A stretch of 64,000 nucleotides of DNA from a virus (taxonomy: Duplodnaviria; Heunggongvirae; Uroviricota; Caudoviricetes), in IMG/VR virus record IMGVR_UViG_3300032103_000073. One strand, written 5' to 3'. Below the pieces are notes generated by a model. It did no database searches. It saw only the letters and a program-made list of their open reading frames with translations, and had not been told where the DNA came from. Shown in pieces: positions 2,705 through 63,083 of this stretch. The translations under genes and the position numbers were made by a program. How positions within the stretch are numbered: position 1 is the stretch's first letter; every line of letters begins with the position of its first letter.

Positions 2705-2709
2705 TATAC

Positions 2710-3218: not shown

Positions 3219-3228
3219 GCACTAAAAC

Positions 3229-3245: not shown

Positions 3246-3273
3246 AATTGATAAATACTTTTGAAAGTTAAAA

Positions 3274-14895: not shown

Positions 14896-15272
14896 AGTTT
14901 TATCAGGCACCTTGGATAACAGAAAAAACACAAAGACAAATGGCACGTTGGGAAATACACAAACGATTTGGTATAAAGCAAGCCTTATGGTGGCAGTTTA
15001 TGCCCGGCACTATCATAGAAGTAAAATGGCCTAGAGGTTGGGCTGTGCTGGATGAAGACCCAGACGGCGGCCAGACTGCCGTGGAATCCTCAGACCCAAA
15101 CGACCATTATAGACCTTGGCTGGAACAGAATGTCGGCAAGCAGGGCTGGGATTGGGATTGGCGTGTTGGGCAAGTCACATTATATGATGATCACCAAAGT
15201 GATACTTTGCTAATTAAAATTAGACACAAATATCGAAATACTGCTATAATAGCTAAACTAAAATGGTCATAG
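14892..15272 (+). CDS. MF-x-LRWS-motif family small protein
   Basis: C-terminus ..AIIAKLKWS. Confidence 0.55.
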   Translation: MKFYQAPWITEKTQRQMARWEIHKRFGIKQALWWQFMPGTIIEVKWPRGWAVLDEDPDGGQTAVESSDPNDHYRPWLEQNVGKQGWDWDWRVGQVTLYDDHQSDTLLIKIRHKYRNTAIIAKLKWS

Positions 15273-25623: not shown

Positions 25624-26241
25624 ATGAGTTTAGTCCCAATGGTGCTCGAGCGTACAGGCAACAGCGAACGAGCAATGGATTTGTATAGCCGATTGATGCG
25701 TGACCGCATTATCTTGCTAGAAGGCGAAGTAGAAGATCGCATGGCTAACCTAATCGTAGCCCAGCTACTGTTTTTGGAAAGCGAAGATCCTGACCGCGAT
25801 ATCACTATGTTTATCAACAGCCCAGGTGGCAGTGTAAGTGCAGGACTTGCAATCTACGACACTATGAACTTTATCCGCCCCGATGTTGCAACTTATGTAG
25901 TTGGGCAAGCATGTAGCATGGGTTCGTTCCTTGCGCAAGCAGGAGCCAAAGGCAAGCGTTTTGTTCTACCCGAAGCTCGTACAATGATTCACCGGGTTAG
26001 TTCGGGCACTCGTGGTACCAGCGGAAGTGTGCATGTCCAGGACTTGCAGTTTGAAGATGCTCGTCGAAGCTTCGAGGAAAGTAAACGCATCAATGAACGT
26101 CTAACTCAACTTTACGTTAAACATAACACTGCTGGAAAAGGCTACGATGAATTGTTTAACGACATGAAGTTTGACACCTTCTTGAGCAGTCGAGAAGCAG
26201 TGGCATATGGTTTGGCTGATCAAGTTATTGAAAAACGATGA
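25624..26241 (+). CDS. clpP: ClpP-like serine protease subunit
   Basis: [15 protein letters not shown]......[10 protein letters not shown]...[10 protein letters not shown] matches the ClpP core with a Ser/His/Asp triad. Confidence 0.85.
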
Positions 26242-30254: not shown

Positions 30255-30557
30255 ATGATTAGAATTACATTTTCTATGATCAGACCAAATACTAATGTCG
30301 ATTGGTGGTTCAATACCCCCGATGGCGCAGTATATAGCAATTACAGAGCAAGCAATTATAGCGATAAAATTAGCAACCCAGAGGTAATTTTAAGCGATGA
30401 TGGTCTTGCTTGGACTTACAGTGTCACTTGGGCAACTAGAGAAGACTACGAAGCAAGATTAGCCGACGACAAATATAGTCTAGCACTAGAAGCAAGAGCC
30501 GCGTACAATCTCGAAAACGGCATTACTGAAACTAAACACCAAATTGTCAATCTTTAA
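30255..30557 (+). CDS. hypothetical protein
   Basis: ORF. Confidence 0.45.
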   Translation: MIRITFSMIRPNTNVDWWFNTPDGAVYSNYRASNYSDKISNPEVILSDDGLAWTYSVTWATREDYEARLADDKYSLALEARAAYNLENGITETKHQIVNL

Positions 30558-36819: not shown

Positions 36820-37003
36820 AGTAAGTAAGAACCCGTTAGAAAGAAACAGCTATATTATTAGCAAAGGTCTCGATTATAAAACCGAAGACTGGTTAGAACT
36901 AAAAGAATGGCTCGAGCAACAAGACCACTTTTATCTCAACGGCGGAGTGCTGCATTTTAAAAGCGACGAAGTCAGTATGATGTTTGCATTAAAATACCTA
37001 TGA
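36812..37003 (+). CDS. MF-x-LRWS-motif family small protein
   Basis: C-terminus ..VSMMFALKYL. Confidence 0.55.
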   Translation: MIKVSKNPLERNSYIISKGLDYKTEDWLELKEWLEQQDHFYLNGGVLHFKSDEVSMMFALKYL

Positions 37004-37617
37004 TTAAACTACTTGGAAAACTCCCTTTAAATCCTGTTATCGCTCTTAGTGGCGGTGTGGATAGTATGGCTGTGGCTGATTTTGTTAGTCGTAGCAGAAG
37101 TGTGCAATGTGCATTTTTCCATCATGGCACCGGGGTTAGTGATATTGCAGCCCAAGTTGTCAAGGACTATTGCCTCAAACGAGGTTGGCATTTGTTTATG
37201 GGTCATATCGTCAATGAACGACCTGAGGACATTAGCCCCGAAGAACACTGGCGTAATGAACGTTATGCGTTCTTAGATAACCTACAGCGTGATGTGATTA
37301 CAGGTCATCATCTTGACGACAGTGTAGAAACTTACCTATGGAGCACCTTGCACGGCACTGCTAAGGTTATCCCGTATCAACGCAATCGTGTAATTCGCCC
37401 GTTCTCTTTGGCAAAGAAAGAGGACCTAGAAGCATGGGCTGAACGAAACAACGTGCCTTGGGTTGAAGATTACACTAACGGTGATACTAAGTATATGCGA
37501 AACTATGTGCGACACAATATTGTTCCGCATGCTCTAGCAGTGAATCCTGGCTTGCACAAAGTGGTAGCACGTAAAGTTGAAGAACAATATCACAAAACAC
37601 TTGACACAAATTATTAA
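37000..37617 (+). CDS. tilS: tRNA(Ile)-lysidine synthetase-like PP-loop domain (TilS N-terminal catalytic domain)
   Basis: SGGVDS PP-loop; TGHHLDDSVETYLW and VIRPF...WVEDYTNGD..Y.RN motifs match the TilS core; 205 aa, catalytic domain only. Confidence 0.75.
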   Translation: MIKLLGKLPLNPVIALSGGVDSMAVADFVSRSRSVQCAFFHHGTGVSDIAAQVVKDYCLKRGWHLFMGHIVNERPEDISPEEHWRNERYAFLDNLQRDVITGHHLDDSVETYLWSTLHGTAKVIPYQRNRVIRPFSLAKKEDLEAWAERNNVPWVEDYTNGDTKYMRNYVRHNIVPHALAVNPGLHKVVARKVEEQYHKTLDTNY

Positions 37618-37630
37618 ATACTGCTATAAT
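37601..37630 (+). promoter_or_regulatory. conserved promoter driving the tRNA pair
   Basis: TTGACA-N18-TATAAT overlapping the tilS stop. Confidence 0.65.
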
Positions 37631-37650
37631 AGATACAATAAATAAAACAC

Positions 37651-37728
37651 TGCTCCTATAGCACAATTGGTTAGTGCAATCGACTCATAATCGATAGGTT
37701 ACTGGTTCGAGTCCAGTTGGGAGCACCA
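37651..37728 (+). tRNA. tRNA-Ile2 (anticodon CAT, lysidine type) or Met
   Basis: cloverleaf; anticodon arm ..TCGACTCATAATCGAT.. as in E. coli tRNA-Ile2; encoded CCA; adjacent to tilS. Confidence 0.8.
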
Positions 37729-37733
37729 AGATT

Positions 37734-37809
37734 TCTGGCGTTCGTTCAATGGATAGGACAAGATTCTTCTAAAGTCTTTATGGGGGTTCGATTCCCTCAC
37801 GCCGGACCA
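37734..37809 (+). tRNA. tRNA-Arg (TCT)
   Basis: cloverleaf; anticodon loop CTTCTAA. Confidence 0.75.
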
Positions 37810-37810
37810 A

Positions 37811-37850
37811 ACAAAAACAAAAACCCGCATAATGCGGGTTTTTGTTTTAT
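37811..37850. terminator. bidirectional rho-independent terminator
   Basis: A-run, cccgcataatgcggg stem, T-run. Confidence 0.8.
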
Positions 37851-38725
37851 CCATTATAGTTAAACGTCGAACGAACTAAAACACGCTCTCTTAATATATT
37901 AGGGTCGTCTTGATCTCGTTTGTGTATGGTCAAGATTTGATCCATCAGAATAATATCACCGGGCTCCCATGGGTGCGAATAGATAAACTTATCCTGAAGA
38001 CAGTGTTCTTTTAAATCTTCTAACAAGCATGGATCTTGCGGAAATGAGCACTTGTTATGAAAGTGAAAATATAATCCTTTTTTTCCTCTAAAGCTATCGT
38101 TGATCAACGGCATTTGATAAGGAACTTTATTTTTTGCCATAGCGTTATATTGATCTGCTGGTAATCCTTCTGCCCATATTTCGGGAGCATACTCAAAATT
38201 GCCCACTATGCCCTGGCAACGCTCTTTGAGGTCTGCAGGCATAGCTTCGTAAGCTAGTGTAGTATCCATGAAACTAGTGCTGGTCCCCTTAATGCCTTCG
38301 CTTACACCCTGCAAGGCAACACCGTTAGCCCTACCCGGTCCGTTGTAGTTGCTATGCCAGTCTAGTGTGCCGGTTCCGAATATACCACTGCGTTTGCCAT
38401 TTTTTATTTGTCCGGTTACTCGCTGCACAGGATACAGATCATCTATGCCTTCATAATTAAATGGATCGATAACTTCTTTGGCTTTGTTAAACAAGACATT
38501 ACCGTGAATGTCCCACGTGCATTGGTCCCAGTTAGCAACATTGCCTTGACCCATGCGATAAATTAGTTTCATATAAGGAACGGTTAGCCTGGGTTGATTT
38601 TTAAATACAACAACTAAATCGCGCAGCAGTGACTCTTTAATATCTACATAATCTTGTTCTGTTAGTTCTCGTATGTCGCAGTCGGAAATTTCTACGGCAC
38701 AATTGTTTAATGGTGTAATCTTCAT
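37847..38725 (-). CDS. TauD/TfdA-like Fe(II)/alpha-ketoglutarate dioxygenase (putative)
   Basis: WEPGDIILMDQILTIHKR C-terminal motif; 292 aa. Confidence 0.45.
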   Translation of the reverse strand: MKITPLNNCAVEISDCDIRELTEQDYVDIKESLLRDLVVVFKNQPRLTVPYMKLIYRMGQGNVANWDQCTWDIHGNVLFNKAKEVIDPFNYEGIDDLYPVQRVTGQIKNGKRSGIFGTGTLDWHSNYNGPGRANGVALQGVSEGIKGTSTSFMDTTLAYEAMPADLKERCQGIVGNFEYAPEIWAEGLPADQYNAMAKNKVPYQMPLINDSFRGKKGLYFHFHNKCSFPQDPCLLEDLKEHCLQDKFIYSHPWEPGDIILMDQILTIHKRDQDDPNILRERVLVRSTFNYNG

Positions 38726-38779
38726 ATGTTTATTTAATCAATAGAGCCTGTAAGCTAGAAAAGTCTAATAAATATTTGC

Positions 38780-39568
38780 ATGTCATATTCTAAAATCATA
38801 ACAAACAAACTAGCTTCTAATACAGAATTTTTACCTTACATTCAATTGGCAGCAACTGCACTGGTTGCAGCATTTGTTATATTTTATCCCCAGTCTCATG
38901 CAGGATGGCTAACAGCAGTTCTTATGTATGCGGCGATTGGCTGTTTTGGCATTAGCATTGGTTATCATAGACTACTAACGCATAAGAGTTTTAAGACTAC
39001 AAAATTTTGGGAATATTTTTGTGCCTTGTGGGGAACATTGGCATTTACTGGCAGTGCGATAGGTTGGGTAGGCATGCACAGAGACCATCACAAATACAGC
39101 GACAAGCCGGGTGACCCGCATAGTCCAGTAGTTCGCAGCTGGCGCATGCTAGTAGCAGCTTACGATTATGCCCCGGATAAATGGAAGATTCGCCATTTAA
39201 TCTTTGATAAATTTCACGTCTTTATTCACACTTGGTATTTTGGTTTATTGTTAGCATGGACAGCTTTTTGGTTTTCACTTGGTGGAATAGCATTAGCTAT
39301 GTATGTGGTTATTATCCCTGCGGTAATTAGCGTTTGGGTTAGCACTACTAGCAACTATATGAACCACAAATGGGGATATAGGAATTTTGAAACAACAGAT
39401 AACAGCCGCAACCTTTGGTTTAATGCAGTCTTTACATTTGGAGAAGGATGGCATAACAACCATCACGCTCGCCCGGGTAATTATGACTTTGGATCTGGTA
39501 CTAGTGGCAAGTGGTGGGAATTTGATCCCGGTGCTAGAATTATAGAATTGATACGATCTTGCAAATAA
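38780..39568 (+). CDS. membrane fatty-acid desaturase/hydroxylase family protein
   Basis: three His boxes HRLLTH, HRDHH and HNNHH; four TM helices. Confidence 0.7.
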   Translation: MSYSKIITNKLASNTEFLPYIQLAATALVAAFVIFYPQSHAGWLTAVLMYAAIGCFGISIGYHRLLTHKSFKTTKFWEYFCALWGTLAFTGSAIGWVGMHRDHHKYSDKPGDPHSPVVRSWRMLVAAYDYAPDKWKIRHLIFDKFHVFIHTWYFGLLLAWTAFWFSLGGIALAMYVVIIPAVISVWVSTTSNYMNHKWGYRNFETTDNSRNLWFNAVFTFGEGWHNNHHARPGNYDFGSGTSGKWWEFDPGARIIELIRSCK

Positions 39569-40077
39569 TTATAAGTTGCACTTGAATCTAGTAAAATTTG
39601 CAAAAAAGAAAAATCGCTGTCGCTATTATTTACAAACATCCCTTTTAATGAGCGGTCTATAATAAAAGGTAGTGGCTGAAGATTATGTTTCTCTGCTTTA
39701 CTTTTATCGTTATTGGCACTAAAATAATTAACGTCAATAGTTCCCGGCGTTAGTGGGATATATAACTCAACTGAAGTTTTGACATCATTGACATACAAAT
39801 CGATAAATCCTTTGCGCTTTTTCGGGTGCATATTATAAAGCATTATTCTTGAAATATTTAAATTGCAATTACTTATGAAATTAAAAATCTCGTAAGTGTG
39901 TAATCGATCATATTGGATGAATTTATTTTTAATATTTTTTGAATGGGACCCCCAGTCGAATTGACAAGAAGATCGGTCTTTTATGACCTCTATATCCGAT
40001 TGCAGCAATTGATAAAAATCAACCGAAGCTTTATGGTCTTGAAAAAAAGTTATTGACATTATTCTAAAAAATAACAA
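39481..40077 (-). CDS. hypothetical protein
   Basis: minus-strand ORF in the island. Confidence 0.4.
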   Translation of the reverse strand: MLFFRIMSITFFQDHKASVDFYQLLQSDIEVIKDRSSCQFDWGSHSKNIKNKFIQYDRLHTYEIFNFISNCNLNISRIMLYNMHPKKRKGFIDLYVNDVKTSVELYIPLTPGTIDVNYFSANNDKSKAEKHNLQPLPFIIDRSLKGMFVNNSDSDFSFLQILLDSSATYNYLQDRINSIILAPGSNSHHLPLVPDPKS

Positions 40078-41240
40078 TGGCTAGTAGATCGAACTAGGCC
40101 GTATTTTATACCCTTCATGCTTGTCCATTCGGGTCCTGCAATTTGTTGCAATTTTTTAATCCCGTTTGTATATATTCTCCTCTGCTCGCTATGTTCGTCT
40201 TTTAAAAACCAAGCGTCACGAGGACTCCACATTAACAAAAAATCATCTTTACCGCTACTATAAGTGTCAGTATTCCAATCTGGATATACAATACGATGTA
40301 ATCCGTTGTTTGTTAGATAAATGAATGTATTGTTATATTTGGCTTTTCCTAACACATTATATTCCGGCGTTAGCCAACCAGCCTTGACATCGTATTCTGG
40401 CACATTTTTTAAATAGTTCATGACTAAATGGCCCTGCTTACATAGTATGTCACATGCATCTGGACTCCAGTAAAAAAACTCATCATTTTCCCAACTTCTG
40501 TTTAGTTCCTGAGTTAAAGGGTTAACGGCATTATCTACAATGTCTATGAAGTTAATTGCATATTTGTTGTTTATTAAATTAACACGCGGTTTATCAATAC
40601 CCCAAACAAAGCAAACAGATTTTCCTTTCGAGTACAAGTCTAAATAATCTTTTTCTTGTTCCCTGATATATCGTCTTGCTTGTTGATTTGGACTAAAAAC
40701 AGCATTTGATTTATACAAGAAATCAAATTTATTGTTATCTTTTGAAAACAAGTCTTTTTGATAGTCTAAATGATCTACTAACCGGAATTTGGTCAATGGG
40801 CTATGTTCTAGCAATTGTTTTGCTACCGGCATTGCAACTCTACTAACTTCACTATTTAAATAAGTGTCCCAACTTCCATCACCGCCGAAATTATGAAAGG
40901 TTGCAATTTCATCTACAAACAGACCTTGATCAACAAATGCTCGTAGCATTGTATAACTGTCTGCTCCACCGGACCACCAAAGCACTATGTAATCATAACG
41001 TTCTCTAATTTGCCTTGCTCGTTTTTGATAAAGAGTTCTTAAGTCCTCGGTTGGTTCGATTTTCCAATTATATGATGCAAATTCATAGTCATTGAAATTC
41101 CAATGTATCTTGTCTACATTATTTTTTTTAGCTGCTTCTATAGCAGATACTTTGCTATAGAATTTCAAATCATTGACTTGATAAAAGCCAAATTTATCTT
41201 TAGACAAATAAGGCTTTGAAATAAGCGAATCGTAGGTCAT
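40059..41240 (-). CDS. PP-loop (SGGxDS) ATP-pyrophosphatase-like protein
   Basis: IVLWWSGGADSYTML motif; 393 aa. Confidence 0.5.
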   Translation of the reverse strand: MTYDSLISKPYLSKDKFGFYQVNDLKFYSKVSAIEAAKKNNVDKIHWNFNDYEFASYNWKIEPTEDLRTLYQKRARQIRERYDYIVLWWSGGADSYTMLRAFVDQGLFVDEIATFHNFGGDGSWDTYLNSEVSRVAMPVAKQLLEHSPLTKFRLVDHLDYQKDLFSKDNNKFDFLYKSNAVFSPNQQARRYIREQEKDYLDLYSKGKSVCFVWGIDKPRVNLINNKYAINFIDIVDNAVNPLTQELNRSWENDEFFYWSPDACDILCKQGHLVMNYLKNVPEYDVKAGWLTPEYNVLGKAKYNNTFIYLTNNGLHRIVYPDWNTDTYSSGKDDFLLMWSPRDAWFLKDEHSEQRRIYTNGIKKLQQIAGPEWTSMKGIKYGLVRSTSHCYFLE

Positions 41241-41269
41241 AAGTAAGTGTATAATTAACTTTATTTATT

Positions 41270-42196
41270 ATGAACAAAACATTTTTAACACTACTGGGAT
41301 CTCTAATGATTTCCACTTCTCTTTTTGCAAAAGAAAAGATTTCGATTTATTTTCCATATGCAGCCAGCGCAAGTCCGACACCTAGCGTCATACGTATGGT
41401 AGATGAAGCAAATAACTTGCAAGAAAAATATAATTTCCAACTGGTATTTAAACCAGGTGGCAATCAGGGTATTGCAGTGAATTCGATGGATCGAGAACCT
41501 AACAACTCGTTGTCTGTTATTGCGCCTGCTTATGTAGAAAATTACAAAACTAACATGTTTGACAAAAACAATCACGTACCGATATGGTCGATGGGTAATG
41601 CTTGTTGGTTGGTTATTTCTAATTTAGGAGACGAAAAAACAGGATTATCAAGTTTAAAACACGAAAAAGAAATAAATGTCGGCGGGGTCGGCTTTGGTAA
41701 TGCTACACACCTGACTGCACTTGCGTTGGGAGAGAAATATAACATAAAAATAAATTATATTGTTTTCAAATCAAACACAGATGCTCTGATGAATATGGTC
41801 GGAAAAAACGGTATTAACATGGTTATAGATAAAGCAGATAACTATATTAATTTTAAAGAAAAAGGTAATCTTCGTGCATTAGCAGTGAGCTGCAATAAAA
41901 AAATAGGGAAATTGAATTTCGTTAAAACATTAGAAGAACAAAAAATAACAGCGCCTTCAGTTTTTAATATTATTATTGCAAACAAAAATATGCCGATAGA
42001 CTTGCAGCAAGACATCAAGTCTATTTTACAAAAAAGTGCAGAAAACATTGGACAAGATTTTTTCTTAGAACATAGTGGTTTTAGACCTAGTCAATTTGAT
42101 AAAATATCAGAAGACATGTTTTACAACAAATCGTTGCTTTTGTTAGAAGAATTGCTTGCAAAGCATAAATATGCTATAGAACTAAGTAAAAAATAA
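41270..42196 (+). CDS. secreted periplasmic solute-binding-like protein
   Basis: signal peptide plus about 290-aa mature domain. Confidence 0.35.
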   Translation: MNKTFLTLLGSLMISTSLFAKEKISIYFPYAASASPTPSVIRMVDEANNLQEKYNFQLVFKPGGNQGIAVNSMDREPNNSLSVIAPAYVENYKTNMFDKNNHVPIWSMGNACWLVISNLGDEKTGLSSLKHEKEINVGGVGFGNATHLTALALGEKYNIKINYIVFKSNTDALMNMVGKNGINMVIDKADNYINFKEKGNLRALAVSCNKKIGKLNFVKTLEEQKITAPSVFNIIIANKNMPIDLQQDIKSILQKSAENIGQDFFLEHSGFRPSQFDKISEDMFYNKSLLLLEELLAKHKYAIELSKK

Positions 42197-42205
42197 GGAG
42201 ATACT

Positions 42206-42565
42206 ATGTTTACTTTAACGATTACAACAACAAGACCTGATACTTCTGCACCGTTTTTTCCGCATTCGCCGGCTGGGCGTTTATACGAAGAAACTTCGCA
42301 AGAACTAATGTTAGAAAGAAATAGTAGCATGCACAATAAACTCGTAGAGTTTACAAGGGTAGAATCGACTGACCATTTAACATTAATAACGACTCTTGTG
42401 TTTGAAAACGTCGAAGGTAGGAAAATATACGGAGATACGCTACTAAGTAGATTATTAGAAAAAAATCTATTAGCAATAGCATCCGCCAGGGAATTATACA
42501 ATCAAACAGTAAATCACGTCAGTACTGTAGAGGTTAAAAACGAAGGTTCTAATACACCGAATTGA
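42206..42565 (+). CDS. hypothetical protein
   Basis: ORF. Confidence 0.4.
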   Translation: MFTLTITTTRPDTSAPFFPHSPAGRLYEETSQELMLERNSSMHNKLVEFTRVESTDHLTLITTLVFENVEGRKIYGDTLLSRLLEKNLLAIASARELYNQTVNHVSTVEVKNEGSNTPN

Positions 42566-42645
42566 CCCTTATTTGTAAAATAGAGTAAACGACTAAGTCG
42601 TTTACTCAGTAGGCAAGCATAAAATAAAAGATTGCAATGTAGACT

Positions 42646-43389
42646 ATGAGCACACGCTTACCTGTATACGCCCCTTTAAATAATAGATTTACGTTTGATG
42701 CTGCTCGTTTAATTGCAGAAATTAACAGTCTAATTGCAAATCAAGCAGAAGAAAGAACATTACCTTTTGAAAACGGTCGTAGCGTATATGACCCTGCTGG
42801 CCGGCTGCAAATCGCAAGCGATGCCGACTTAAACAACACTACGAAATATGAAATAAACGAACACAGACAACGAGTTAAAATCCCTGGCAAGATTAAAACT
42901 TACCATGTTTTTAACTTAACCTATTTGCCTGAAGAACAAGACAGTCTAATAGATATATATCGAAATAACGATCCTGAGAAAAAGATTTTTTGGCATACTT
43001 ATAAAAAGCCCTTTACGTGGCGTAAAGAATTAGAAAATACTTACATTAAACAGTGCGTGGAACAATTTCCGTGGGAGTATATACAAGGTGTTAGACTAAT
43101 ACATATGTCACCGCCTAGTATTGGACAAATTCATAGAGATAGTCACCCCAGAGATAATCTACGCTATTTTAGAGAAGGTTTTGCCAGTATCAGTTTTAAC
43201 ATAGACTCGGGCAATGGAGTTCTTAAGTATTTAGACGCAGGCGAAGAAAAGCAAGTTAATAATAATGTTAAAATATTTCACTTTGATGACAGTGTTGCCC
43301 ATGGTGTCACTGCAATTTCATCTCCACGCTACCAACTGAGAATGTGGGGGAAATTATCTGTTCCGTATTTGGATTTATTAAATGTTTAA
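42646..43389 (+). CDS. Fe(II)/2OG dioxygenase-like paralog
   Basis: QIHRDSHP ... VAHGVTA (HxD...H). Confidence 0.4.
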   Translation: MSTRLPVYAPLNNRFTFDAARLIAEINSLIANQAEERTLPFENGRSVYDPAGRLQIASDADLNNTTKYEINEHRQRVKIPGKIKTYHVFNLTYLPEEQDSLIDIYRNNDPEKKIFWHTYKKPFTWRKELENTYIKQCVEQFPWEYIQGVRLIHMSPPSIGQIHRDSHPRDNLRYFREGFASISFNIDSGNGVLKYLDAGEEKQVNNNVKIFHFDDSVAHGVTAISSPRYQLRMWGKLSVPYLDLLNV

Positions 43390-43933
43390 AAAACTTGATA
43401 ATTCTTTTTTAAATTTAGAACTAGATTGGAAGTCGTTTATAACAGATGATATATTTACAGAATATTATTCTAAAAAACGCGGCGGCGGTAGCTTCTTTTA
43501 TACCCTGCCTTGTAGTAAGAAAGACTTCTTAAATCTGCAAAAAAAGAATATTTTTACTATCGAACCAACTTTTATCCAGTACTGCGAATTTACCGGTCCC
43601 GGTTTGGTTACTCCGCATATTGACCGAGGGTCAACTGTTGCATTGAACTTTTACCTGGAACCGCAAGGTGATCGCACAATTTTTTATGAAACTACTTTAG
43701 ACTGTGACAGTGGTACCGGGTACCACGGGGATAAATCAAAGTTGTCATATGTAACAGACTTGAGCACCTTAAAAGAAATAGGATCTTTTGTTGCTGCACC
43801 ACTTGACGTTTATTTGCTAGACGTTAACAAATTGCACGGGATAGAAAAAGTAAACGACCTGCCGCGAACAATGATTACCTTCAGGTGGTTTAAACATTCG
43901 TATGAAGAAGTGTTATCAAGCCTGTCCTTATAA
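43382..43933 (+). CDS. Fe(II)/2OG dioxygenase-like paralog
   Basis: TPHIDRGSTVALNFYL ... KLHGIEK (HxD...H). Confidence 0.4.
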   Translation: MFKKLDNSFLNLELDWKSFITDDIFTEYYSKKRGGGSFFYTLPCSKKDFLNLQKKNIFTIEPTFIQYCEFTGPGLVTPHIDRGSTVALNFYLEPQGDRTIFYETTLDCDSGTGYHGDKSKLSYVTDLSTLKEIGSFVAAPLDVYLLDVNKLHGIEKVNDLPRTMITFRWFKHSYEEVLSSLSL

Positions 43934-43938
43934 AATAA

Positions 43939-43967
43939 TTGACACAAAGGCTAAATAGAAGTACAAT
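43939..43967 (+). promoter_or_regulatory. promoter (TTGACA-N17-TACAAT)
   Basis: upstream of tRNA-Thr. Confidence 0.6.
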
Positions 43968-43975
43968 AACAACAT

Positions 43976-44052
43976 TGCTGGATTAGCTCAGTTGGTAGAG
44001 CACTCGCCTTGTAAGCGAAAGGTCGTCAGTTCGAACCCGACATCCAGCACCA
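43976..44052 (+). tRNA. tRNA-Thr (TGT)
   Basis: cloverleaf; loop CTTGTAA; CCA encoded. Confidence 0.8.
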
Positions 44053-44086
44053 AAGTTAAATTTTTTATCTATTTTGCCAAAAGATA

Positions 44087-44115
44087 TTGACACAAGAGAT
44101 AAATAAACTTATAAT
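44087..44115 (+). promoter_or_regulatory. promoter (TTGACA-N17-TATAAT)
   Basis: consensus hexamers. Confidence 0.6.
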
Positions 44116-44164
44116 AGAAGCTTACGTTAACAAAGTTAGCGTAGAAATTTTTAGGAATAACCAA

Positions 44165-45225: not shown

Positions 45226-45855
45226 ATGAACTATATAATTTACAAGACTACAAATCTGCTAAACGGTATGTACTACATTGGTTCTCATCAAACCAATGAC
45301 TTAAATGACGGATACTTAGGTTCGGGTAAACATTTAAAAAGAGCCATTACTAAGTACGGCAGAGAAAATTTTAAATTTGAAATTCTTTACTTTCTTCCCT
45401 CAAAAGAGGAAATGTTTAAAGTAGAACGAGAAATCGTAAATGAATCTTTTGTGCAAGATCCGCTAACGTATAATTTAAAAATCGGTGGTAGCGGAGGGAA
45501 TCCTGGTATTATCGGAGCTTTTTCTGGAAGAAGGCATACCGAAGAAACTAGAGAAAAAATGAGAGTTTCGAGGTCGAAACAAGCGCCCATGTCAGAAACA
45601 AGTAGACAAAAACTTTCAGAAAATAACTGGTCTAAAAGAGATCCCGGCGCGCATAGAGAACACATGCGTAAGATAGCATCTATGCCACGGTCGGAAGAAC
45701 ATAACAAAAAAGTCGCCGAAGCAAACATAGGCAAAACAATAGTTAATAATGGTATTATTGCTAAAAGAATAGATAAGAAAGATTTGAGCTACTATGAAGA
45801 TAGTGTTGGAAAAGAGGCGCAATGCCTCGTAAGAAATAATATGCCCTTAAGATAA
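45226..45855 (+). CDS. GIY-YIG homing endonuclease (Seg-like)
   Basis: IIYKTTNLLNGMYYIGSH...KRAITKYG GIY-YIG module plus basic C-terminal DNA-binding region. Confidence 0.75.
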   Translation: MNYIIYKTTNLLNGMYYIGSHQTNDLNDGYLGSGKHLKRAITKYGRENFKFEILYFLPSKEEMFKVEREIVNESFVQDPLTYNLKIGGSGGNPGIIGAFSGRRHTEETREKMRVSRSKQAPMSETSRQKLSENNWSKRDPGAHREHMRKIASMPRSEEHNKKVAEANIGKTIVNNGIIAKRIDKKDLSYYEDSVGKEAQCLVRNNMPLR

Positions 45856-46376: not shown

Positions 46377-46763
46377 ATGAAAGCAATTTGCTTACAATGT
46401 AATAAAGATTTTGAATACGGGCATAGTTCCACTGGGAAGTTTTGTAGCAACCAGTGTAGCGGCTTATATAAGAAAACAGAACATAAACAAAAGTTCTTTT
46501 CAGGTTTGTTAAAACGAATTGAACGACCTACAGCAAGGAAATATCTTGCTGAGGAAAGAGGATATAAATGTGAAGTATGTAGCGTAAGTGATTGGCAAGG
46601 CAAGCCAATCACTTTACATGTAGATCATATAAATGGCGATCCGTCAAACGATCACCCAGGTAACTTAAGGTTAATTTGCCCTAACTGCCATAGTCAAACA
46701 GAGTTTTTGGGTGCGGCAAATAAAGGTAGAGGACGCGGTTCATTAGGAATCGCAAAGTATTAA
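46377..46763 (+). CDS. HNH homing endonuclease
   Basis: CxxC ... HVDHINGDPSNDHPGNLRLICPNCH (HNH with zinc ligands). Confidence 0.75.
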   Translation: MKAICLQCNKDFEYGHSSTGKFCSNQCSGLYKKTEHKQKFFSGLLKRIERPTARKYLAEERGYKCEVCSVSDWQGKPITLHVDHINGDPSNDHPGNLRLICPNCHSQTEFLGAANKGRGRGSLGIAKY

Positions 46764-47138: not shown

Positions 47139-47163
47139 AGACCCGCCAATTATAAATATTAAC

Positions 47164-47760
47164 ATGATACTAAAGTACAGAGATCCAAGATTTTATTCTG
47201 TAGATTCGTTGAAGTGCTGGAAAAATGTCAACGTTCCTTTAAATGTTGTTCATCCCGATGCAACTATAGACATTAGATCAAATAGTTTGAAAGAAATATT
47301 GCTTCCATTATCTGCAATAGATCCCAATTTTAAATTATGGTTAGCAGAACTAGGATTAGAAATTTCCCTAGTAAGATTGTTTATTGCTAGTGCAAATTAC
47401 GAGTATACAAAACATGTAGATCGTCAAACATTTAACGACCAGTCAGTGGCGTTAAATTTTGCCTTCGATGACACTGGCACTGTTTTTTCATGGCATAATT
47501 TAAATAAAGATGGCAGGATCGAAGTTACAAAAAATAAAAACAATATCCCGATTTGGAATTTTTCCAACTGTGCTACTGTTTTGGCAGAAGAAATTAAACA
47601 TCGAGAAAATCAGCCGTTTTTAGTCAACACTGGATATATTCATTCTTTAAAAGTTGGCAATCAGGACAGACATTGTTATAGTTATTTCCTGCGGAAAGCC
47701 GGTACAGCCGTTCCGTTGCAATGGGATGATGCAATAATAGCATTTGACAGATTTATATAA
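47164..47760 (+). CDS. Fe(II)/2OG dioxygenase-like paralog
   Basis: KHVDRQ...LNFAFDD...NTGYIHSL; paralog of 52449. Confidence 0.45.
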   Translation: MILKYRDPRFYSVDSLKCWKNVNVPLNVVHPDATIDIRSNSLKEILLPLSAIDPNFKLWLAELGLEISLVRLFIASANYEYTKHVDRQTFNDQSVALNFAFDDTGTVFSWHNLNKDGRIEVTKNKNNIPIWNFSNCATVLAEEIKHRENQPFLVNTGYIHSLKVGNQDRHCYSYFLRKAGTAVPLQWDDAIIAFDRFI

Positions 47761-47764
47761 TTAA

Positions 47765-48139: not shown

Positions 48140-48346
48140 CAAGTTAAGAAATTAACTGTTTTGATAGATGTTGTTGGGAGCGATCCCCCACAACAGAGAT
48201 GTAAGGTCCTCAACTGCGAGGCGTTAGCAACATTTATCATCTTGTTCTTTAAAAATTTGCAGTGTTGTTTAGGCTGATTGACGGCAATCGAAAAGCAGTC
48301 TGAGTCTTGTCCCCGGCGCACCGCTTTGCCGAGCGTACCGCAGGGA
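48140..48346 (+). other. structured leader A (candidate small RNA), homologous to leader B
   Basis: shared 5' box AGAT(A/G)(C/T)AAGTTAAG(A/C)AATTAACT and a GGGA(A)GCGATC hairpin. Confidence 0.4.
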
Positions 48347-48420
48347 GTCTCTATAGTGTAAGGGTAGCACGCCAGCTTGTAAGAGTTGGAGGATTGGGTT
48401 CGAATCCCAATAGAGTTTAA
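48347..48420 (+). tRNA. tRNA-Gln-scaffold paralog with an 8-nt anticodon loop (TTGTAAGA); no CCA
   Basis: D-arm and T-arm nearly identical to the tRNA-Gln at 45012; stem CCAGC/GTTGG encloses 8 nt. Confidence 0.4.
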
Positions 48421-49948: not shown

Positions 49949-50542
49949 ATGTTTTGTAAATTTTGCAACAAAGAATGTAAGAATAAGAATAGTCTAGTAA
50001 ACCATGAGCGTTTATGTCCAGCGAACCCTGACAGAAAATATGTGTCACACACGCTAGGTAAAAACGGTCATGTCGCTTGGAATAAAGGACTGTCCAAAGA
50101 AACTTCTAGATCTTTGGCACAGTTAAGTGAAACACATAAGCGAAACGGTCACGGTGGCTGGTCTAAGAAAGCTAGTTCCAACGGAGGCAAAGCAGGTGGC
50201 GGATATCGTGAAAATGCAGGAAGAAGTAAGAAATTCAAAGTAGTCGATTCTTTCGACAAAACGGTGTGCTTGCAAAGCACATACGAACTTAGATGCAGTC
50301 GACTATTGAATGAGTTGGGCATTAAGTGGATAAGACCATCAGCATTAAAGTATGATAGTAAAAATTATTTTGCTGATTTTTATTTACCGGAGTATGATTT
50401 GTATCTAGATCCAAAGAATAATTATAAAGCAAAATTGGATACTGACAAAATCAATAAAGTAAAAGAACAAAATAATGTAAGAGTTGTGATTCTCACTGAG
50501 GATCAGTTGACTCAAGATTATATAAAAAGCCTTTGTAGTTAA
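49949..50542 (+). CDS. zinc-finger protein, possible homing-endonuclease-like
   Basis: N-terminal CKFC...HERLC zinc finger; basic middle region; inserted between tRNAs. Confidence 0.35.
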   Translation: MFCKFCNKECKNKNSLVNHERLCPANPDRKYVSHTLGKNGHVAWNKGLSKETSRSLAQLSETHKRNGHGGWSKKASSNGGKAGGGYRENAGRSKKFKVVDSFDKTVCLQSTYELRCSRLLNELGIKWIRPSALKYDSKNYFADFYLPEYDLYLDPKNNYKAKLDTDKINKVKEQNNVRVVILTEDQLTQDYIKSLCS

Positions 50543-52310: not shown

Positions 52311-52437
52311 TCTGTAGGTGCTGAAACGGTAGACAGCAGACGGCAGTCTGTGTAAAGGGTTCGAATCCCTTGGAAGTCCGCAAGACTTTTAGTATGGTAC
52401 TATTGGTGGTTCGAGTCCATCCCTGCAGACCAAATAA
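52311..52437 (+). ncRNA. about 125-nt tRNA-like element (acceptor CTGTAGG/CCTGCAG, CCA, two T-arm-like hairpins)
   Basis: 7-bp terminal pairing, D-arm-like helix, internal AAGGGTTCGAATCCCTT and GGTGGTTCGAGTCCATC. Confidence 0.4.
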
Positions 52438-52448
52438 ATAAATAGTCA

Positions 52449-53051
52449 ATGGAACAAAAATTTTTATTTGCAGAAAAGTCAAAATGTTTTAGACACATCA
52501 CTATGCCGTTTACCTTTATTCAACCGCATGTTCCTATCGATCTGACTAGCATTACTTCTCCTAAGGAAATACACATTAATATCAATTCAGTAGACGCCTG
52601 TTTTATAACATGGTTGCATAATCTAGGTTTGTATTCACTCCATCCTAGGTTATTTGTTACTCCGCCTGGGACAAAATACAATATCCATGTTGATATTTTG
52701 TTCCCGCGAGAAAATACTGCTACTTATTTAAATTTTCCGTTTAATGACGCTGGTTCATTTATGAGGTGGTTTAATTTAAAAAACGAAAAAAATGCTTATA
52801 TAACAACTACTAGTGTAGAAGACAAAAAATTTCAAGTTATTAATGCAAACGAAGATGATTGCTCTGTTATCGAAATTATGCACGCGCCCGGCAATTCTCC
52901 TATATTAGTTAATGCCGGTTACTTACATGATTTAACGAATCCGAGTAATTTCAGACATTGTTGGAGTTTCCCTTTGCTAAAATTAATCGACAACACACGA
53001 ATAAATTGGGACGAAGCAGTGGAGATTTTTTCCTCTTACATTAAAAATTAA
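52449..53051 (+). CDS. Fe(II)/2OG dioxygenase-like paralog
   Basis: IHVDIL...LNFPFNDAG...NAGYLHDL. Confidence 0.45.
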   Translation: MEQKFLFAEKSKCFRHITMPFTFIQPHVPIDLTSITSPKEIHININSVDACFITWLHNLGLYSLHPRLFVTPPGTKYNIHVDILFPRENTATYLNFPFNDAGSFMRWFNLKNEKNAYITTTSVEDKKFQVINANEDDCSVIEIMHAPGNSPILVNAGYLHDLTNPSNFRHCWSFPLLKLIDNTRINWDEAVEIFSSYIKN

Positions 53052-53574
53052 CAGGTAAGTCAAATATTCGAATCAGTAGCATCACTCGCATATTTGGAGA
53101 TTTGTTTTCTACTCTATGCGGAACTTTAACCGATAGCAAATAAGGCACAGAAGTTTCGTGAGATTCTATTAACTTACAATCATCCGGGTAGTACCTGAAA
53201 AAATGATGAGTTTTTCCTTTATTTTCTACTGTTACTACGTGCGGGTTTGCTAGCGTGTTATAAAAATTTATCCAAGTATTTTCGCACCCAGAAATGGGAA
53301 TGTTTAAACTATATCGGTAAGGACCGCTGTCCATATGATAATTTCCGTTGTCATATCCCATTGTTACATTTATTGCAACCTGGCCTACGCAATGGTTGGG
53401 TAATTTTAGATCATTAATTACTTTTTTGATAGACGGAAGTGTTAAAAAAACATCTTTGTTATTTTCTATATAAGTTAAATTAGTAGAAAGCAAAAGGTGT
53501 TTGGGTATAGACATCAATACTTCGTTTTGTATGTCTGTGAGATTTTCTATATGTATTTCTCTAAAAGGAGCCAT
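53041..53574 (-). CDS. Fe(II)/2OG dioxygenase-like paralog
   Basis: YHMDSGPYRYSLNIPISGCENTWINF...VPHRVEN; paralog of 18783. Confidence 0.45.
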   Translation of the reverse strand: MAPFREIHIENLTDIQNEVLMSIPKHLLLSTNLTYIENNKDVFLTLPSIKKVINDLKLPNHCVGQVAINVTMGYDNGNYHMDSGPYRYSLNIPISGCENTWINFYNTLANPHVVTVENKGKTHHFFRYYPDDCKLIESHETSVPYLLSVKVPHRVENKSPNMRVMLLIRIFDLPVNF

Positions 53575-54195: not shown

Positions 54196-54270
54196 GTCCG
54201 GTTATTTCAGCGGTAGAATACTTCCATGACACGGAAGAGGTCACTGGTTCGATCCCAGTACCGGACACCA
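54196..54270 (+). tRNA. tRNA-Val (GAC)
   Basis: loop ATGACAC. Confidence 0.7.
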
Positions 54271-54271
54271 A

Positions 54272-54300
54272 TTGACACAAAATCACAGAACAACTATAAT
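54272..54300 (+). promoter_or_regulatory. promoter (TTGACA-N17-TATAAT)
   Basis: upstream of the tRNA at 54304. Confidence 0.6.
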
Positions 54301-54303
54301 AAC

Positions 54304-54380
54304 AACTAATAATGCCCCGGTGGTGGAATTGGTAGACACGCTACGTTGAGGTCGTAGCATTTGCAGGTTCGAGTCCTGTC
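54304..54380 (+). tRNA. class-I tRNA with Leu anticodon GAG (G37)
   Basis: 5' half resembles E. coli tRNA-Leu (TGGTGGAATTGGTAGACAC) but the variable loop is only 4-5 nt. Confidence 0.55.
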
Positions 54381-54432
54381 CAGGGTACCATTGAATGTAA
54401 AGTTAAATACATATGTAAACAAAGGAGTAATC

Positions 54433-54993
54433 ATGTCTGTACTAGCACTCGACATTTCTGGAATCCCACGTCAGTGGATTTCCTTTGATGACGCTATCAC
54501 TTACCACGCCAAAGATGCAGTAGCATGGAGCATGGGAGAAGTAGTAGCGAAGTATCGCGGTGGCTTACAAAATGATGGATCTGAAAGTTACTTGGAAACC
54601 ACTAGCATTATTGCTATTAAGGGTCACGGATTTAATCCCCATAAGCACGGAACTGTGGCGTTGAGCAACCGAACATTGTTTGGTCGTGACCGCAACACTT
54701 GTGCCTACTGCGGGGGTCATTTCCCTAACTATCACCTGTTGAGTAGGGATCATATTGTTCCTAAATATCACGGCGGTGAAAATACTTGGATGAACTGTGT
54801 TACGGCTTGCAAGGAATGTAACAGCAAAAAAGGACATAAGACTTTGAAAGAAGCTCGTATGGAATTGCTCTACGTGCCATATGCACCTAACCACTTTGAA
54901 AATATGATTTTGCAAAACCGAAGCATCATGGCGGATCAGATGGAATATTTGATCCAAGGTGTGCCTAAGCACAGCAGGATCCTGCTTTCATAG
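54433..54993 (+). CDS. HNH endonuclease
   Basis: CAYCGGHF...DHIVPKYHGGENTWMNCVTACKECNSKK; SD GGAG before ATG 54433. Confidence 0.75.
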   Translation: MSVLALDISGIPRQWISFDDAITYHAKDAVAWSMGEVVAKYRGGLQNDGSESYLETTSIIAIKGHGFNPHKHGTVALSNRTLFGRDRNTCAYCGGHFPNYHLLSRDHIVPKYHGGENTWMNCVTACKECNSKKGHKTLKEARMELLYVPYAPNHFENMILQNRSIMADQMEYLIQGVPKHSRILLS

Positions 54994-55280: not shown

Positions 55281-55952
55281 ATGAAACGTATCATCGAAAT
55301 CAGAGCCGCCGAGGGCGGAGAAGATAGTAAACTATTTGTTAAAGATTTGGCACAAGCATATATTAAGTTCGCACAAAGCAAGGGCTGAGCTACCCGCCTG
55401 ATAGGTGAGTATCAAGGCGAACTTCATATTGAAGTCCAGGGTACTGATTTATCCGGCTTGTATAACGAAAGCGGAGGACATCGCATACAGCGAATTCCGC
55501 CCACAGAACGAAAAGGCCGAGTGCATACCAGCACAGTCACAGTTGCCATCGTAGATCCCGCAGAAGTTGCTTTAGAATTAAAGGACTCTGATTTACGAAT
55601 AGAATGGTACAGTGGTACAGGCGCCGGCGGGCAGCACAGGAACAAGCACCAAAACTCGTGCCGCATTACACACATTCCTTCTGGCATAGTTGCAACAGCA
55701 CAATGTCGCTCAAGGGAAAACAGTTTAGCGGAAGCACGAAGCGCGATTGTTGCCCGTGTAAACGAACAAGTTAAAAAACAGTTTACAGATGGGCTAGCAC
55801 AAAATAGGCGTGAGCAAGTGGGCTCTGGCATGCGAGGAGACAAAATTCGCACTTACAGATTCCAAGACGACAGGGTGCAGGACCATGTAACAAGCAAAAC
55901 AGCCAGTACTAAAAAAGTATTACAAGGCAACTTTGACTTGCTGTGGGCTTAA
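55281..55952 (+). CDS. RF1-like peptide chain release factor (domains 2-4) interrupted by an in-frame TGA at 55386-55388
   Basis: strong SD; GGQ motif SGTGAGGQHRNK; PxT-type tripeptide (PPT); ESGGHRIQRIP; a single reading frame across the TGA. Confidence 0.65.
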
Positions 55953-61496: not shown

Positions 61497-62396
61497 ATGT
61501 TTAAAGACGAATTGAAAAAGTATGTAGAGACTTCGGGCTTAGTGAACATGAAGCCCGCTGGGGACGGAATCTTTGTTCTCAAGTATCGCAAAAAAGTTTT
61601 TTATGACAATCTTTGGGACGAGTATCTGGAACACTGCCGCGGGTCAGTGATTGATAAAGACTTTAATCTAATCTCTTATCCGTTTCAGAAAATCTACAAC
61701 TATGGTATCGAAAAGGAAGCACCTGTGCTAGCGGACGACACTGAAGTTTTAGCATATCGCAAAGTCAATGGCTTTATGGTAGCCATGACTTGGTACAATG
61801 GCGACATCTTAGTTTCAACTACAGGTTCTACAGACAGTCCTTATGTTACTATGGCAAAAGAAATGATGTTGACTCATCAATCTTGGGCAGACTGGCAGTT
61901 GGCACTTAACCGTTCAGACATGGATGGCATGACCGTTATGTTTGAGTGTGTTCATCATAACGACCCGCACATCATTCCAGAAAAGCCAGGTATGTATGTA
62001 TTAGGCTATCGTAACAACCAGTTTGGTTCTAAAGTGGGGCACGATCCTTGCGTATTGCAAGACTTGGCGATTGCATTTAACTGCCACAAGCCAGAAAGCG
62101 TAACAGCGTCCATGACGGCAATAAAGAACTTGGCCAAGGAATGCAAGCACGAAGGGTTTGTATTCTATACCGCTGATGGTGTAAGTGCTAAGATCAAGTC
62201 GCCATACTACTTGACTTCAAAGTGGGTTGCTCGCAATCCACGTACAGATAAGTTAGTAGACTTGAACAAGGACATCAAGCACAATATCGACGAGGAGTAT
62301 TATGGGCTCATCGACGCAATCCGATTAAACATCGCGGCTTACACCGCGATGAATGAACAGGAAAGATTAGAGTGGGTTCGTAAGTTCCTCGGATAA
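61497..62396 (+). CDS. ATP-dependent RNA ligase-like nucleotidyltransferase
   Basis: motif I KVNGF; EGFVFY (motif IV); K-x-K (motif V). Confidence 0.6.
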   Translation: MFKDELKKYVETSGLVNMKPAGDGIFVLKYRKKVFYDNLWDEYLEHCRGSVIDKDFNLISYPFQKIYNYGIEKEAPVLADDTEVLAYRKVNGFMVAMTWYNGDILVSTTGSTDSPYVTMAKEMMLTHQSWADWQLALNRSDMDGMTVMFECVHHNDPHIIPEKPGMYVLGYRNNQFGSKVGHDPCVLQDLAIAFNCHKPESVTASMTAIKNLAKECKHEGFVFYTADGVSAKIKSPYYLTSKWVARNPRTDKLVDLNKDIKHNIDEEYYGLIDAIRLNIAAYTAMNEQERLEWVRKFLG

Positions 62397-63083
62397 CTTA
62401 CAGTTATCACCGTGCCATCGTTTAAGATTGCTCGCACTTACTTCTTTAGAACAGTGAGGGCATCTTAACCTTGGACGGTTTGCGTGATAGGGATTTTCTT
62501 TAATCTTGTTGATATGTTCTGTTGATTTGGGCTTGCTCTGCTTTGCCTTTATTTCTGCCGCATACTCAACACCAAATCGTTCCTCGTAAGTTTTTCCAGC
62601 ATAGTGTTCTCGCATAGTTTGCTTGAACTCATCTGTTTTGGGCTGCGAATGTTTGCCCTTGCCGTTGGCACTCATTTTCTTTCTTGTGCTCTCTTTGTGA
62701 GTTTTGCTATACATAGGATTAAGTTCGCCTCTACGAGATTTACCATACCAAGGATTTTTCTTTCCGCGAATGTCTGCGTGAAAAGTCCCAGCACCGGTTG
62801 CTTGGTTTATGTATAACGGATTCTTGTGTACCTGGTGCTTTTTATGAAAGTATTCTTCTTGTTCTGCCGCTTCTTTTTTAGTAGCATGAACAGTAAGTAT
62901 TTTGGTTTCGAAAAGGTGTGGATTTTGTTCAAGTTCCTCTAACCAAATCTGTTTGTAAAGTTTGCTGGAAACGGAACCGTGATATCCGTTTTGAACATTT
63001 TTTACATTGGAACGCCCAATGTAAAACATAGGCATTTTGGTCCCTTTGTAAATGGTTAGATAGGTACAGTATTCCATTGACAT
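62367..63083 (-). CDS. GIY-YIG homing endonuclease (Seg-like)
   Basis: YLTIYKGTKMPMFYIGRS GIY-YIG; basic C-terminal region; only large minus-strand gene in this block. Confidence 0.7.
   Translation of the reverse strand: MSMEYCTYLTIYKGTKMPMFYIGRSNVKNVQNGYHGSVSSKLYKQIWLEELEQNPHLFETKILTVHATKKEAAEQEEYFHKKHQVHKNPLYINQATGAGTFHADIRGKKNPWYGKSRRGELNPMYSKTHKESTRKKMSANGKGKHSQPKTDEFKQTMREHYAGKTYEERFGVEYAAEIKAKQSKPKSTEHINKIKENPYHANRPRLRCPHCSKEVSASNLKRWHGDNCKLSEELTNPL

Follow-up and report, generated by a model that had tools for sequence, protein, structure and literature searches.

The window analysed here is a stretch of 64,000 nucleotides from the IMG/VR virus record IMGVR_UViG_3300032103_000073 (Caudoviricetes), and the subject is a group of accessory genes, positions 37847–43933, lodged between tRNA genes. 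The window contains 32 tRNA genes, all on the plus strand, and its long open reading frames (ORFs) are nearly all on the plus strand as well. According to ARAGORN, the left border of the region is tRNA-Arg(TCT) at 37735–37809, the second member of a tRNA(CAT)–tRNA-Arg(TCT) pair that occupies 37652–37809 (+), and the right border is tRNA-Thr(TGT) at 43977–44052 (+), with a promoter-like site at 43939–43967 upstream. A bidirectional intrinsic-terminator-like hairpin lies at 37814–37848; its 17-nt arms are 100% complementary and are flanked by runs of A and T. Eight ORFs are found between the two tRNA borders. In all these positions we agree with an earlier first-pass annotation, which described the region as a single tRNA-flanked island. 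It also called the region the only one of mixed gene orientation in the window, which is nearly so: the other minus-strand genes are 53041–53574 and a NUMOD3 endonuclease-like ORF at 62367–63083.

The eight ORFs may be divided into a TauD/TfdA-family gene (module 1), a desaturase operon formed by the desaturase and two genes of HxD…H…R proteins (modules 2a, 2b and 2c), and a four-gene cassette (module 3) with an AsnB-like PP-loop protein, a TctC-family binding protein and two small proteins. All eight are predicted as genes in independent assemblies too. An identical copy of the island is present in a 267-kb JGI contig and in the run SRR4101185. A copy identical at about 91–96% is carried by L018, a contig of 346 kb (here and below, L-numbers are labels of related contigs and loci compared with the window), each island gene being 89–98% identical to its L018 counterpart. 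The dN/dS ratio, calculated against L018 and L019, is 0.04–0.30 for every island gene, hence the ORFs are real genes under purifying selection. In a megablast comparison with 50,697 phage records the island matches tRNAs only, and no cultured phage there is related at the DNA level. The carrier is a jumbo phage, its contigs measuring 267–346 kb, and the accessory region is genuine and under selection.

Comparison with the relatives shows that the region is not a single island, as assumed initially, but a mosaic whose three modules are inherited independently. In L019, whose flanking DNA is 82–92% identical to that of the window, two segments are missing with clean junctions, the indel ends being clean replacements: 37819–38768, that is, the TauD-like gene, and 39556–42653, that is, the ORFs of the 192-residue, AsnB-like, TctC and 119-residue proteins. 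The second gap corresponds approximately to the 3.1-kb cassette. The desaturase operon is kept, so the presence of the island across close relatives, proposed in the first-pass annotation as a check, is partial. L001, an otherwise dissimilar IMG/VR phage, shares the four-gene cassette only, at 24–74% amino-acid identity. The GC content of the cassette is 33.5%, compared with the mean of 42.9% (standard deviation 4.6) for the ORFs of the window. The dS values relative to L018 are 0.68 for the TilS-like gene just outside the island, 0.59 for the TauD-like gene, 0.17 for the desaturase, 0.15 for the AsnB-like gene and 0.03 for TctC, the range in the cassette being 0.03–0.15. Thus, in the interval 37000–43933 neighbouring genes differ in dS more than 20-fold, and this unevenness indicates recent recombination inside the region.

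A classic integrative island at a tRNA gene was considered and rejected, as none of the island ORFs matches an integrase or recombinase family, and the repeat search in the window gave only tRNA-family repeats and no flanking pair. A 23-nt repeat with 74% identity near the cassette ends (39627 and 42659) was judged to be due to chance. At the position of the window's terminator, L019 has a different hairpin.

The strongest recurrent link of the locus is that between the AsnB-like and TctC genes of module 3. The AsnB-like gene (40059–41240, minus strand) encodes a protein of 393 residues with the motif WWSGGADS. Among 40 homologs S90, G92, D94 and S95 do not vary, and G91 and A93 hardly do, in agreement with the initial description of a minus-strand PP-loop SGGADS protein. 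In the predicted structure, the fold of the synthetase domain is closest to that of asparagine synthetase B, with identity about 9% (7–11%). The PP-loop motif SGGxDS is common to the AsnB family (AsnB, 1ct9; beta-lactam synthetase, 1jgt; CarA, 1q15; TsnB9, 7ylz), whose implied shared chemistry is adenylation of a carboxylate followed by attack of a nitrogen nucleophile. Unlike these enzymes, the window protein has no N-terminal Ntn (N-terminal nucleophile) glutaminase domain: it starts with MTYDSL, Cys2 is absent, and the synthetase domain is preceded by a novel N-terminus of only about 65 residues, the PP-loop beginning at residue 90. It also differs from them in being essentially phage-restricted and paired with an exported TctC protein. 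None of the 40 family members matches Asn_synthase (PF00733) at E ≤ 0.1, a single marginal PP-loop hit has E 0.074, and no match was found in NCBIfam or among PDB sequences. The first-pass annotation suggested a tRNA-modifying role for this protein; however, its fold is of the AsnB type and is not nearer to the TilS/TtcA/MnmA type, and its alignment with TilS is limited to 31 residues around the P-loop.

The AsnB-like family comprises 650 proteins and is seen in 312 IMG/VR contigs. It is essentially restricted to phages: the only match in 185,579 species genomes is on a phage-like 14.8-kb contig of a metagenome-assembled genome. In the BFVD search, proteins of uncultured Caudovirales rank first, followed by phage entries named asparagine synthase, and tblastn against cultured-phage records yields no match. 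One phage-like contig binned as Polynucleobacter is the sole hint at a host; it is too weak and was not used.

The TctC/Bug-family solute-binding protein is encoded at 41270–42196 (+). Its PF03401 score is 40.9 bits (cut-off 27; E 2.2e-10), and it matches PDB entry 7ndr with E 3.7e-8. The N-terminus, MNKTFLTLLGSLMISTSLFA|KEK, is a clear Sec signal, so that export is predicted, and nearly all full-length phage homologs have signal peptides as well; hence the secreted binding-like protein noted earlier acquires a family. The TctC domain, size and Sec signal peptide are shared with the TctC/Bug receptors (AdpC, 7ndr; TphC, 8hka; BugD, 2f5x). The differences are that the window protein is phage-encoded, has a divergent N-terminal motif and no TctA or TctB nearby, and that its gene is coupled to that of a cytoplasmic synthetase. 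The closest analogy to a phage TctC is PstS of cyanophages, a binding protein encoded by the phage that works through the transporter of the host.

In the window the TctC and AsnB-like genes diverge from a 29-bp spacer; they are divergent neighbours in L001 too, and overlap by 14–20 nt in L020, L029, L033 and L034. Of 40 AsnB-like lineages, defined by clustering of IMG/VR proteins at 70% identity, 14 have TctC no more than 3 kb away from the AsnB-like gene, in nine cases as its direct neighbour, and 15 have a second AsnB-like paralog at that distance. TctC is present in 25 of 80 AsnB-like loci versus 5 of 80 control desaturase loci.

The remaining two genes of the cassette encode small proteins. 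The gene 3' of the AsnB-like gene (39481–40077, minus strand, with an alternative start at 40059) encodes 192–198 residues, has no family assignment, and overlaps the desaturase gene by its 3' end. It is called as a gene of 192 residues in L012 and L018, has a positional homolog in L001, and its dN/dS is 0.17. Homology of the 192-residue variant (39481–40059) to the approximately 200-residue protein encoded 3' of the AsnB-like gene in L002–L011, or to the proteins of 191–200 residues in L033 and L034, was not detected. The conserved 119-residue protein (42206–42565, +) has homologs in L001, L020 and L019 and dN/dS of 0.08. A 100-residue paralog of it is encoded at 30255–30557, 12 kb upstream, and is kept in L019.

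The desaturase gene (38780–39568, +) encodes a protein of 262 residues that matches PF00487 with E 1.7e-20. Nine histidines of the metal site (H63, H68, H100, H103, H104, H196, H225, H228 and H229) are invariant in homologs with identity from 26 to 89%, and comprise three His boxes plus the histidine of the fourth transmembrane segment. The hydropathy profile has four hydrophobic segments (16–36, 42–62, 154–174 and about 170–191), as expected for a four-segment membrane protein. The assignment as a three-His-box membrane desaturase is therefore retained. The only solved relatives, with E 2e-12 in PDB, are acyl-CoA delta-9 enzymes of the SCD1 type (4zyo, 4ymk). Judging by these similarities, the protein is a minimal di-iron membrane desaturase of the SCD/DesC delta-9 type, with the regiospecificity predicted from the resemblance to SCD1. 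Cyanophage DesC-like desaturases (vFAD) are also phage-borne, delta-9-type membrane enzymes with three His boxes (Roitman et al., PMC5776448), and their activity has been proven in yeast, where delta-9 C16:1 is made (PMC5776448). Compared to them, the window desaturase is shorter and translationally coupled to two HxD…H…R proteins, and it is only 28–29% identical to any desaturase from phage records.

In L019 the desaturase stop codon overlaps the start of the homolog of gene 42646, and the 3' end of this homolog runs into the start of the 43382 homolog, all three being contiguous on the plus strand; hence these genes form a translationally coupled three-gene operon. The middle gene (42646–43389, +) encodes a protein of 247 residues with H163-x-D165, H219 and R228 invariant in five homologs (23–85% identical). 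The family has no Pfam match and nothing significant in PDB searches. The first-pass annotation considered proteins 42646 and 43382 to be paralogs. Both indeed have the HxD…H…R arrangement, but homology between them is not demonstrated, as the hhalign E-values (0.04–0.14) are not significant. As there is no statistical link to the small family, 42646 is likely an oxygenase rather than a demonstrated paralog of 43382, and from its motif we describe it as a probable, putative 2-oxoglutarate (2OG)-type oxygenase. The desaturase adjoins small genes of the double-stranded beta-helix (DSBH) or AspH-like type also in unrelated phages, namely L014–L017 and the pelagiphage Mosig, in which the neighbour is AspH-like.

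The last gene of the operon (43382–43933, +) encodes a minimal Fe(II)/2OG oxygenase of 183 residues with an HxD…H…R signature and a DSBH fold. An alignment of 78 sequences, including the paralogs 47164 and 52449, shows no variation at H79, D81, N89, H152 and R162, which answers the call to check the metal triad and the 2OG-binding arginine. R162, at the position binding the 2OG C5-carboxylate, lies 10 residues past the distal histidine, and the same spacing is seen in all six small proteins of the window. The best fold matches are proline hydroxylases, which hydroxylate free amino acids, and AspH-like enzymes, rather than the JmjC-type hydroxylases suggested initially. The profile search retrieves 789 cluster representatives. 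The protein itself has no Pfam match, the scan of 78 family members gives a single marginal one, to 2OG-FeII_Oxy_3, and sequence and profile searches of PDB yield nothing significant. Based on the fold, the triad and the arginine, the family is assigned to the Fe(II)/2OG oxygenase superfamily, with turnover predicted. It shares the DSBH core, the HxD…H triad and the arginine 10 residues past the distal histidine with known minimal 2OG oxygenases (proline 3- and 4-hydroxylases, AspH/LpxO-type enzymes, viral collagen prolyl 4-hydroxylase). It differs from them by its size of only 165–200 residues, by having no sequence-level family, and by its occurrence as multi-copy single-gene indels in tRNA arrays.

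Five of the six small proteins form one family according to iterative local searches and profile comparison: 43382 and the four further paralogs noted earlier, 47164–47760 (+), 52449–53051 (+), 53041–53574 (minus strand) and 18783–19301 (+). The first two lie inside the tRNA array and are 32% identical to each other; 18783 and 53041 are 34% identical (E 7e-27). The motifs of 53041 align with those of the 43382 family with hhalign E 3e-5, and this gene is recovered by local jackhmmer too; for 18783, placed by local jackhmmer convergence, the motifs align with E 0.014. Three of the paralogs outside the island lie between tRNA genes. Two genes, 47164 and 52449, are single-gene indels: window segments 47150–47762 and 52437–53045, respectively, are missing from L019. 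In the segment 18013–19301, the start of 18783 shares one base with the stop of a Peptidase_S11 D-Ala-D-Ala carboxypeptidase gene (E 2e-32), whose product has a signal peptide.

The TauD-like gene (37847–38725, minus strand) has the lowest dN/dS of the reported range, 0.04. The protein matches PF02668 over profile positions 2–266 of 267 with the score of 68.4 bits (cut-off 27; E 1.3e-18), and its best PDB match is TfdA (E 1.4e-11). While the family proposed initially is correct, the metal motif is H-S-N and not HxD: H124-S-N126 aligns with the WHSD of TfdA. N126 is conserved in at least 90% of 30 metagenomic homologs, and WHSN is invariant in an alignment that includes Mosig_00075 of a pelagiphage and PHM2_004 of the cyanophage P-HM2. 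The distal H268 and, for the 2OG-binding arginine, R281 and R285 are invariant in the homologs. The IMG/VR scan with this protein gave no match. The assignment to the TauD/TfdA family stands although the defining carboxylate ligand is replaced, and the activity is possibly non-canonical.

A TauD-family gene with the same W-H-S-N motif is found in the 2OG-Fe(II) clusters of cyanophages and pelagiphages (Mosig_00072–00081; P-HM2 PHM2_004). Clusters of the Mosig type likewise have a desaturase beside a small AspH-like oxygenase and several copies of small oxygenases per genome. The window differs from these clusters in that its small oxygenases have no Pfam match, in the location in a tRNA array and in the presence of the AsnB-like/TctC cassette. 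The roles of phage 2OG oxygenases are uncharacterised, and in one view they are modulators of the host's nitrogen metabolism (PMC4164917). Phage accessory islands containing TauD-like, desaturase and 2OG-oxygenase genes are already known. We found no description of a phage TctC/AsnB-like module, in particular of a phage-restricted AsnB-like protein with an exported TctC in tRNA arrays, in a literature search aimed at this pairing only; nor did we meet there the HxN clade of TauD or the minimal oxygenase family.

The linkage to tRNA genes, noted already in the first-pass annotation, is real and conserved. The tRNA(CAT)–tRNA-Arg(TCT) pair directly precedes AsnB-like genes in the window and L018, L031, L033 and L034, and TctC is present in all of them except L031. 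The AsnB-like proteins of L031, L033 and L034 are 41–46% identical to that of the window, and further tRNAs or a transfer-messenger RNA (tmRNA) follow. These three loci have further genes in common with the window, so that the position amounts to a slot conserved across a wide jumbo-phage lineage. AsnB-like genes are situated near tRNAs also in L029 and L035, whereas the closest homologs of the window gene (L001, L002–L011 and L020) have no tRNA within 10 kb. In L033 (13269–13634) and L034 (12523–12921) the tmRNA comes right after the block of TctC, AsnB-like and DctP-like genes, the DctP-like proteins having no signal peptides. In L031, a tryptophan-halogenase-family gene (13633–15243) is found between tRNA genes, and this contig has two AsnB-like genes and two genes of the 42646 family.

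The true tRNA-modifying PP-loop gene of the locus is situated just outside the island. It is the TilS-like ORF at 37000–37617 (+), which encodes the N-terminal domain only (TIGR02432, E 3.6e-32; PF01171, E 1.5e-28) and is kept in both L018 and L019. It stands directly upstream of the tRNA with the CAT anticodon (37000–37728 for both), and together they probably constitute a phage lysidine system for a tRNA-Ile2. A sigma-70-like promoter with 12 of 12 consensus positions is located at 37601–37630, before the tRNA(CAT)–tRNA-Arg(TCT) pair. A 37-nt promoter-like repeat, TTGACA…TA[CT]AAT, occurs at 43937–43973, 44085–44121 and 54270–54306, in each case preceding a unit of tRNAs or of small genes.

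Several other features of the array and its surroundings deserve mention. ARAGORN reports a tRNA with a four-base anticodon, gtaa at 48346–48419 of the window and ttga in L018 (14423–14509) and L019 (13298–13384); it could be frameshift-suppressor-like, degenerate or miscalled. Just after the array, ORF 55458–55952 combines an RF-1 domain with no more than the final 27 or so positions of the PCRF domain, and is possibly a peptide-chain release factor that has been split or frameshifted. Homing-endonuclease-like genes in or after the array are 45226–45855 (GIY-YIG/NUMOD3), 46377–46763 (HNH), 49949–50542 (Zn-finger), 54361–54993 (HNH) and the minus-strand NUMOD3 ORF mentioned above; the GIY-YIG gene at 45226 is missing from both close relatives, L018 and L019. 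ClpX and ClpP are encoded in the window, together with homologs of ribosomal protein S21, HSP20 and ClpS that are identified via matches to annotated genes of L029 (intervals 403–1641, 2134–3579 and 25624–26241). A Band-7 protein is encoded as well. The PADLOC defence models have zero matches among the island proteins and the paralogs, and hence a defence or anti-defence interpretation has no support.

We favour, with the probability of roughly 55%, the interpretation that three independent host-takeover modules occupy a conserved variable slot between tRNA(CAU)/tRNA-Arg(UCU) and the remaining tRNA array. It proceeds from what the comparisons establish, namely the anatomy of the locus, the family and fold assignments, mosaicism, purifying selection, the recurrent TctC/AsnB-like linkage and the conservation of the slot. 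By analogy with the cyanophage delta-9 desaturases, the desaturase operon would oxidatively tailor the host membrane or envelope lipid during infection; the lipid or envelope pathway suggested initially for the whole island is plausible for this operon. The low-GC cassette would have been inserted into the operon or retained within it. The phage TctC protein would plug into the host TctAB transporter and capture an extracellular di- or tricarboxylate, and the AsnB-like synthetase would adenylate a carboxyl of the captured compound or its derivative. The adenylated carboxyl would then be converted to an amide with free ammonia or an amine as the donor, as the protein has no glutaminase domain, and the two small proteins (192–198 and 119 residues) would be partners in the cassette.

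Some observations weigh against this interpretation. The kinship to AsnB comes from the predicted structure, with no Pfam or PDB sequence match beside it. The TctC protein lacks the usual P-G-G motif near the N-terminus, and hence may bind something atypical, and there is no TctA or TctB among the island ORFs. The desaturase is directly adjacent to a DSBH gene in just 3 of 80 IMG/VR desaturase loci, which rules out constant pairing of the two as a general rule. The conserved placement in tRNA arrays is not accounted for by a purely metabolic role, except through shared ancestry and early co-transcription. Finally, we infer the substrates of the enzymes and the lipid tailoring, and purely so the transporter hijack.

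The same families recur together in L020, L059, L098, L043/44, L033 and L035, which could mean that the modules are parts of one coherent pathway acting on one substrate class, for instance an envelope lipid that is amidated, hydroxylated and unsaturated, or else a small molecule or peptide that is secreted, and that L019 has undergone partial loss. L020 and L059 have one or more desaturases, DSBH, TctC, AsnB-like, radical S-adenosylmethionine (rSAM)-SPASM genes and a 42646 homolog in other orders, and in L020 a related TctC/AsnB-like cassette even occupies the same site, between the desaturase and the 42646 homolog. A desaturase, a 42646 homolog and an AsnB-like or DSBH gene are present in L098 and L043/44; L033 has TctC, two AsnB-like genes and one DSBH gene; L035 has an AsnB-like gene, four DSBH genes, B12-rSAM, SDR and NMO; and Mosig groups genes of AspH-like, desaturase, aminotransferase, TauD, methylase and acetyltransferase families. 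However, L019 retains the desaturase operon without the TauD-like gene or the cassette, AsnB-like genes of L001, L002–L011 and L029 are not accompanied by a desaturase, and within 3 kb of the AsnB-like gene in the 40 lineages a DSBH gene is seen in three cases, a desaturase in three and TauD in one. The modules also have unequal GC content and dS, and the families could co-occur merely because related phages hold them in the same hypervariable accessory regions. We therefore regard a single pathway as unlikely. Somewhat more doubtful is an extension of the favoured scheme, phage "capture-and-amidate", in which the TctC hijack and amidation by the AsnB-like enzyme would be kept at the head of jumbo-phage tRNA arrays since the product, such as an amide amino acid, would serve phage translation, and the minimal 2OG oxygenases would act on that pool as hydroxylases.

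The tRNA context can also be read literally, the AsnB-like enzyme and the small oxygenases modifying tRNAs or translation proteins. This would agree with the position of the AsnB-like gene immediately after the tRNA(CAT)–tRNA-Arg(TCT) pair in five contigs and near tRNAs in two more loci, with the three oxygenase paralogs between tRNA genes, and with the TilS-like and RF-1-like genes nearby. Still, the AsnB-type fold with its short P-loop alignment to TilS, the exported partner (a periplasmic binding protein is the commonest detected non-paralog neighbour of the synthetase), the nearest homologs being distant from tRNAs, and the abundance of endonucleases and indels in the array, which serves as a landing site for both, lead us to favour inherited synteny and early co-transcription from the strong sigma-70-like array promoters over tRNA chemistry. 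A common slot can be inherited together with the other shared genes, and the best fold matches of the oxygenases are free-amino-acid hydroxylases. Thus a direct role in tRNA or protein modification seems quite improbable. The least probable scheme is the supply of asparagine or another amide amino acid, with TctC importing aspartate and the AsnB-like protein acting as an asparagine synthetase that depends on ammonia and supplies phage translation. Its attraction is that the fold is nearest to asparagine synthetase B and has no glutaminase domain, that the linked TctC family includes the solved BugD, which binds aspartate, and that the gene resides in a translation-related part of the genome. 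But the protein and AsnB share about 9% identity, sequence searches give no AsnB signal, and tandem AsnB-like paralogs in 15 of the 40 lineages point to diversified specificities rather than one housekeeping reaction.

Phage auxiliary genes rewiring host metabolism are well known, and if the favoured interpretation of the AsnB-like/TctC module is true, it would be the second case, PstS being the first, in which a phage provides host transporters with a periplasmic receptor of its own, here tied to a dedicated cytoplasmic enzyme. The phage TauD clade with a conserved asparagine in place of the iron-binding aspartate makes the routine label "taurine dioxygenase" in cyanophage and pelagiphage genomes questionable. 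The oxygenases of about 180 residues form a large family with an intact catalytic signature and members that behave as single-gene indels. The 2OG-oxygenase genes of aquatic phages are many and functionally unassigned, and this locus offers concrete handles on them.

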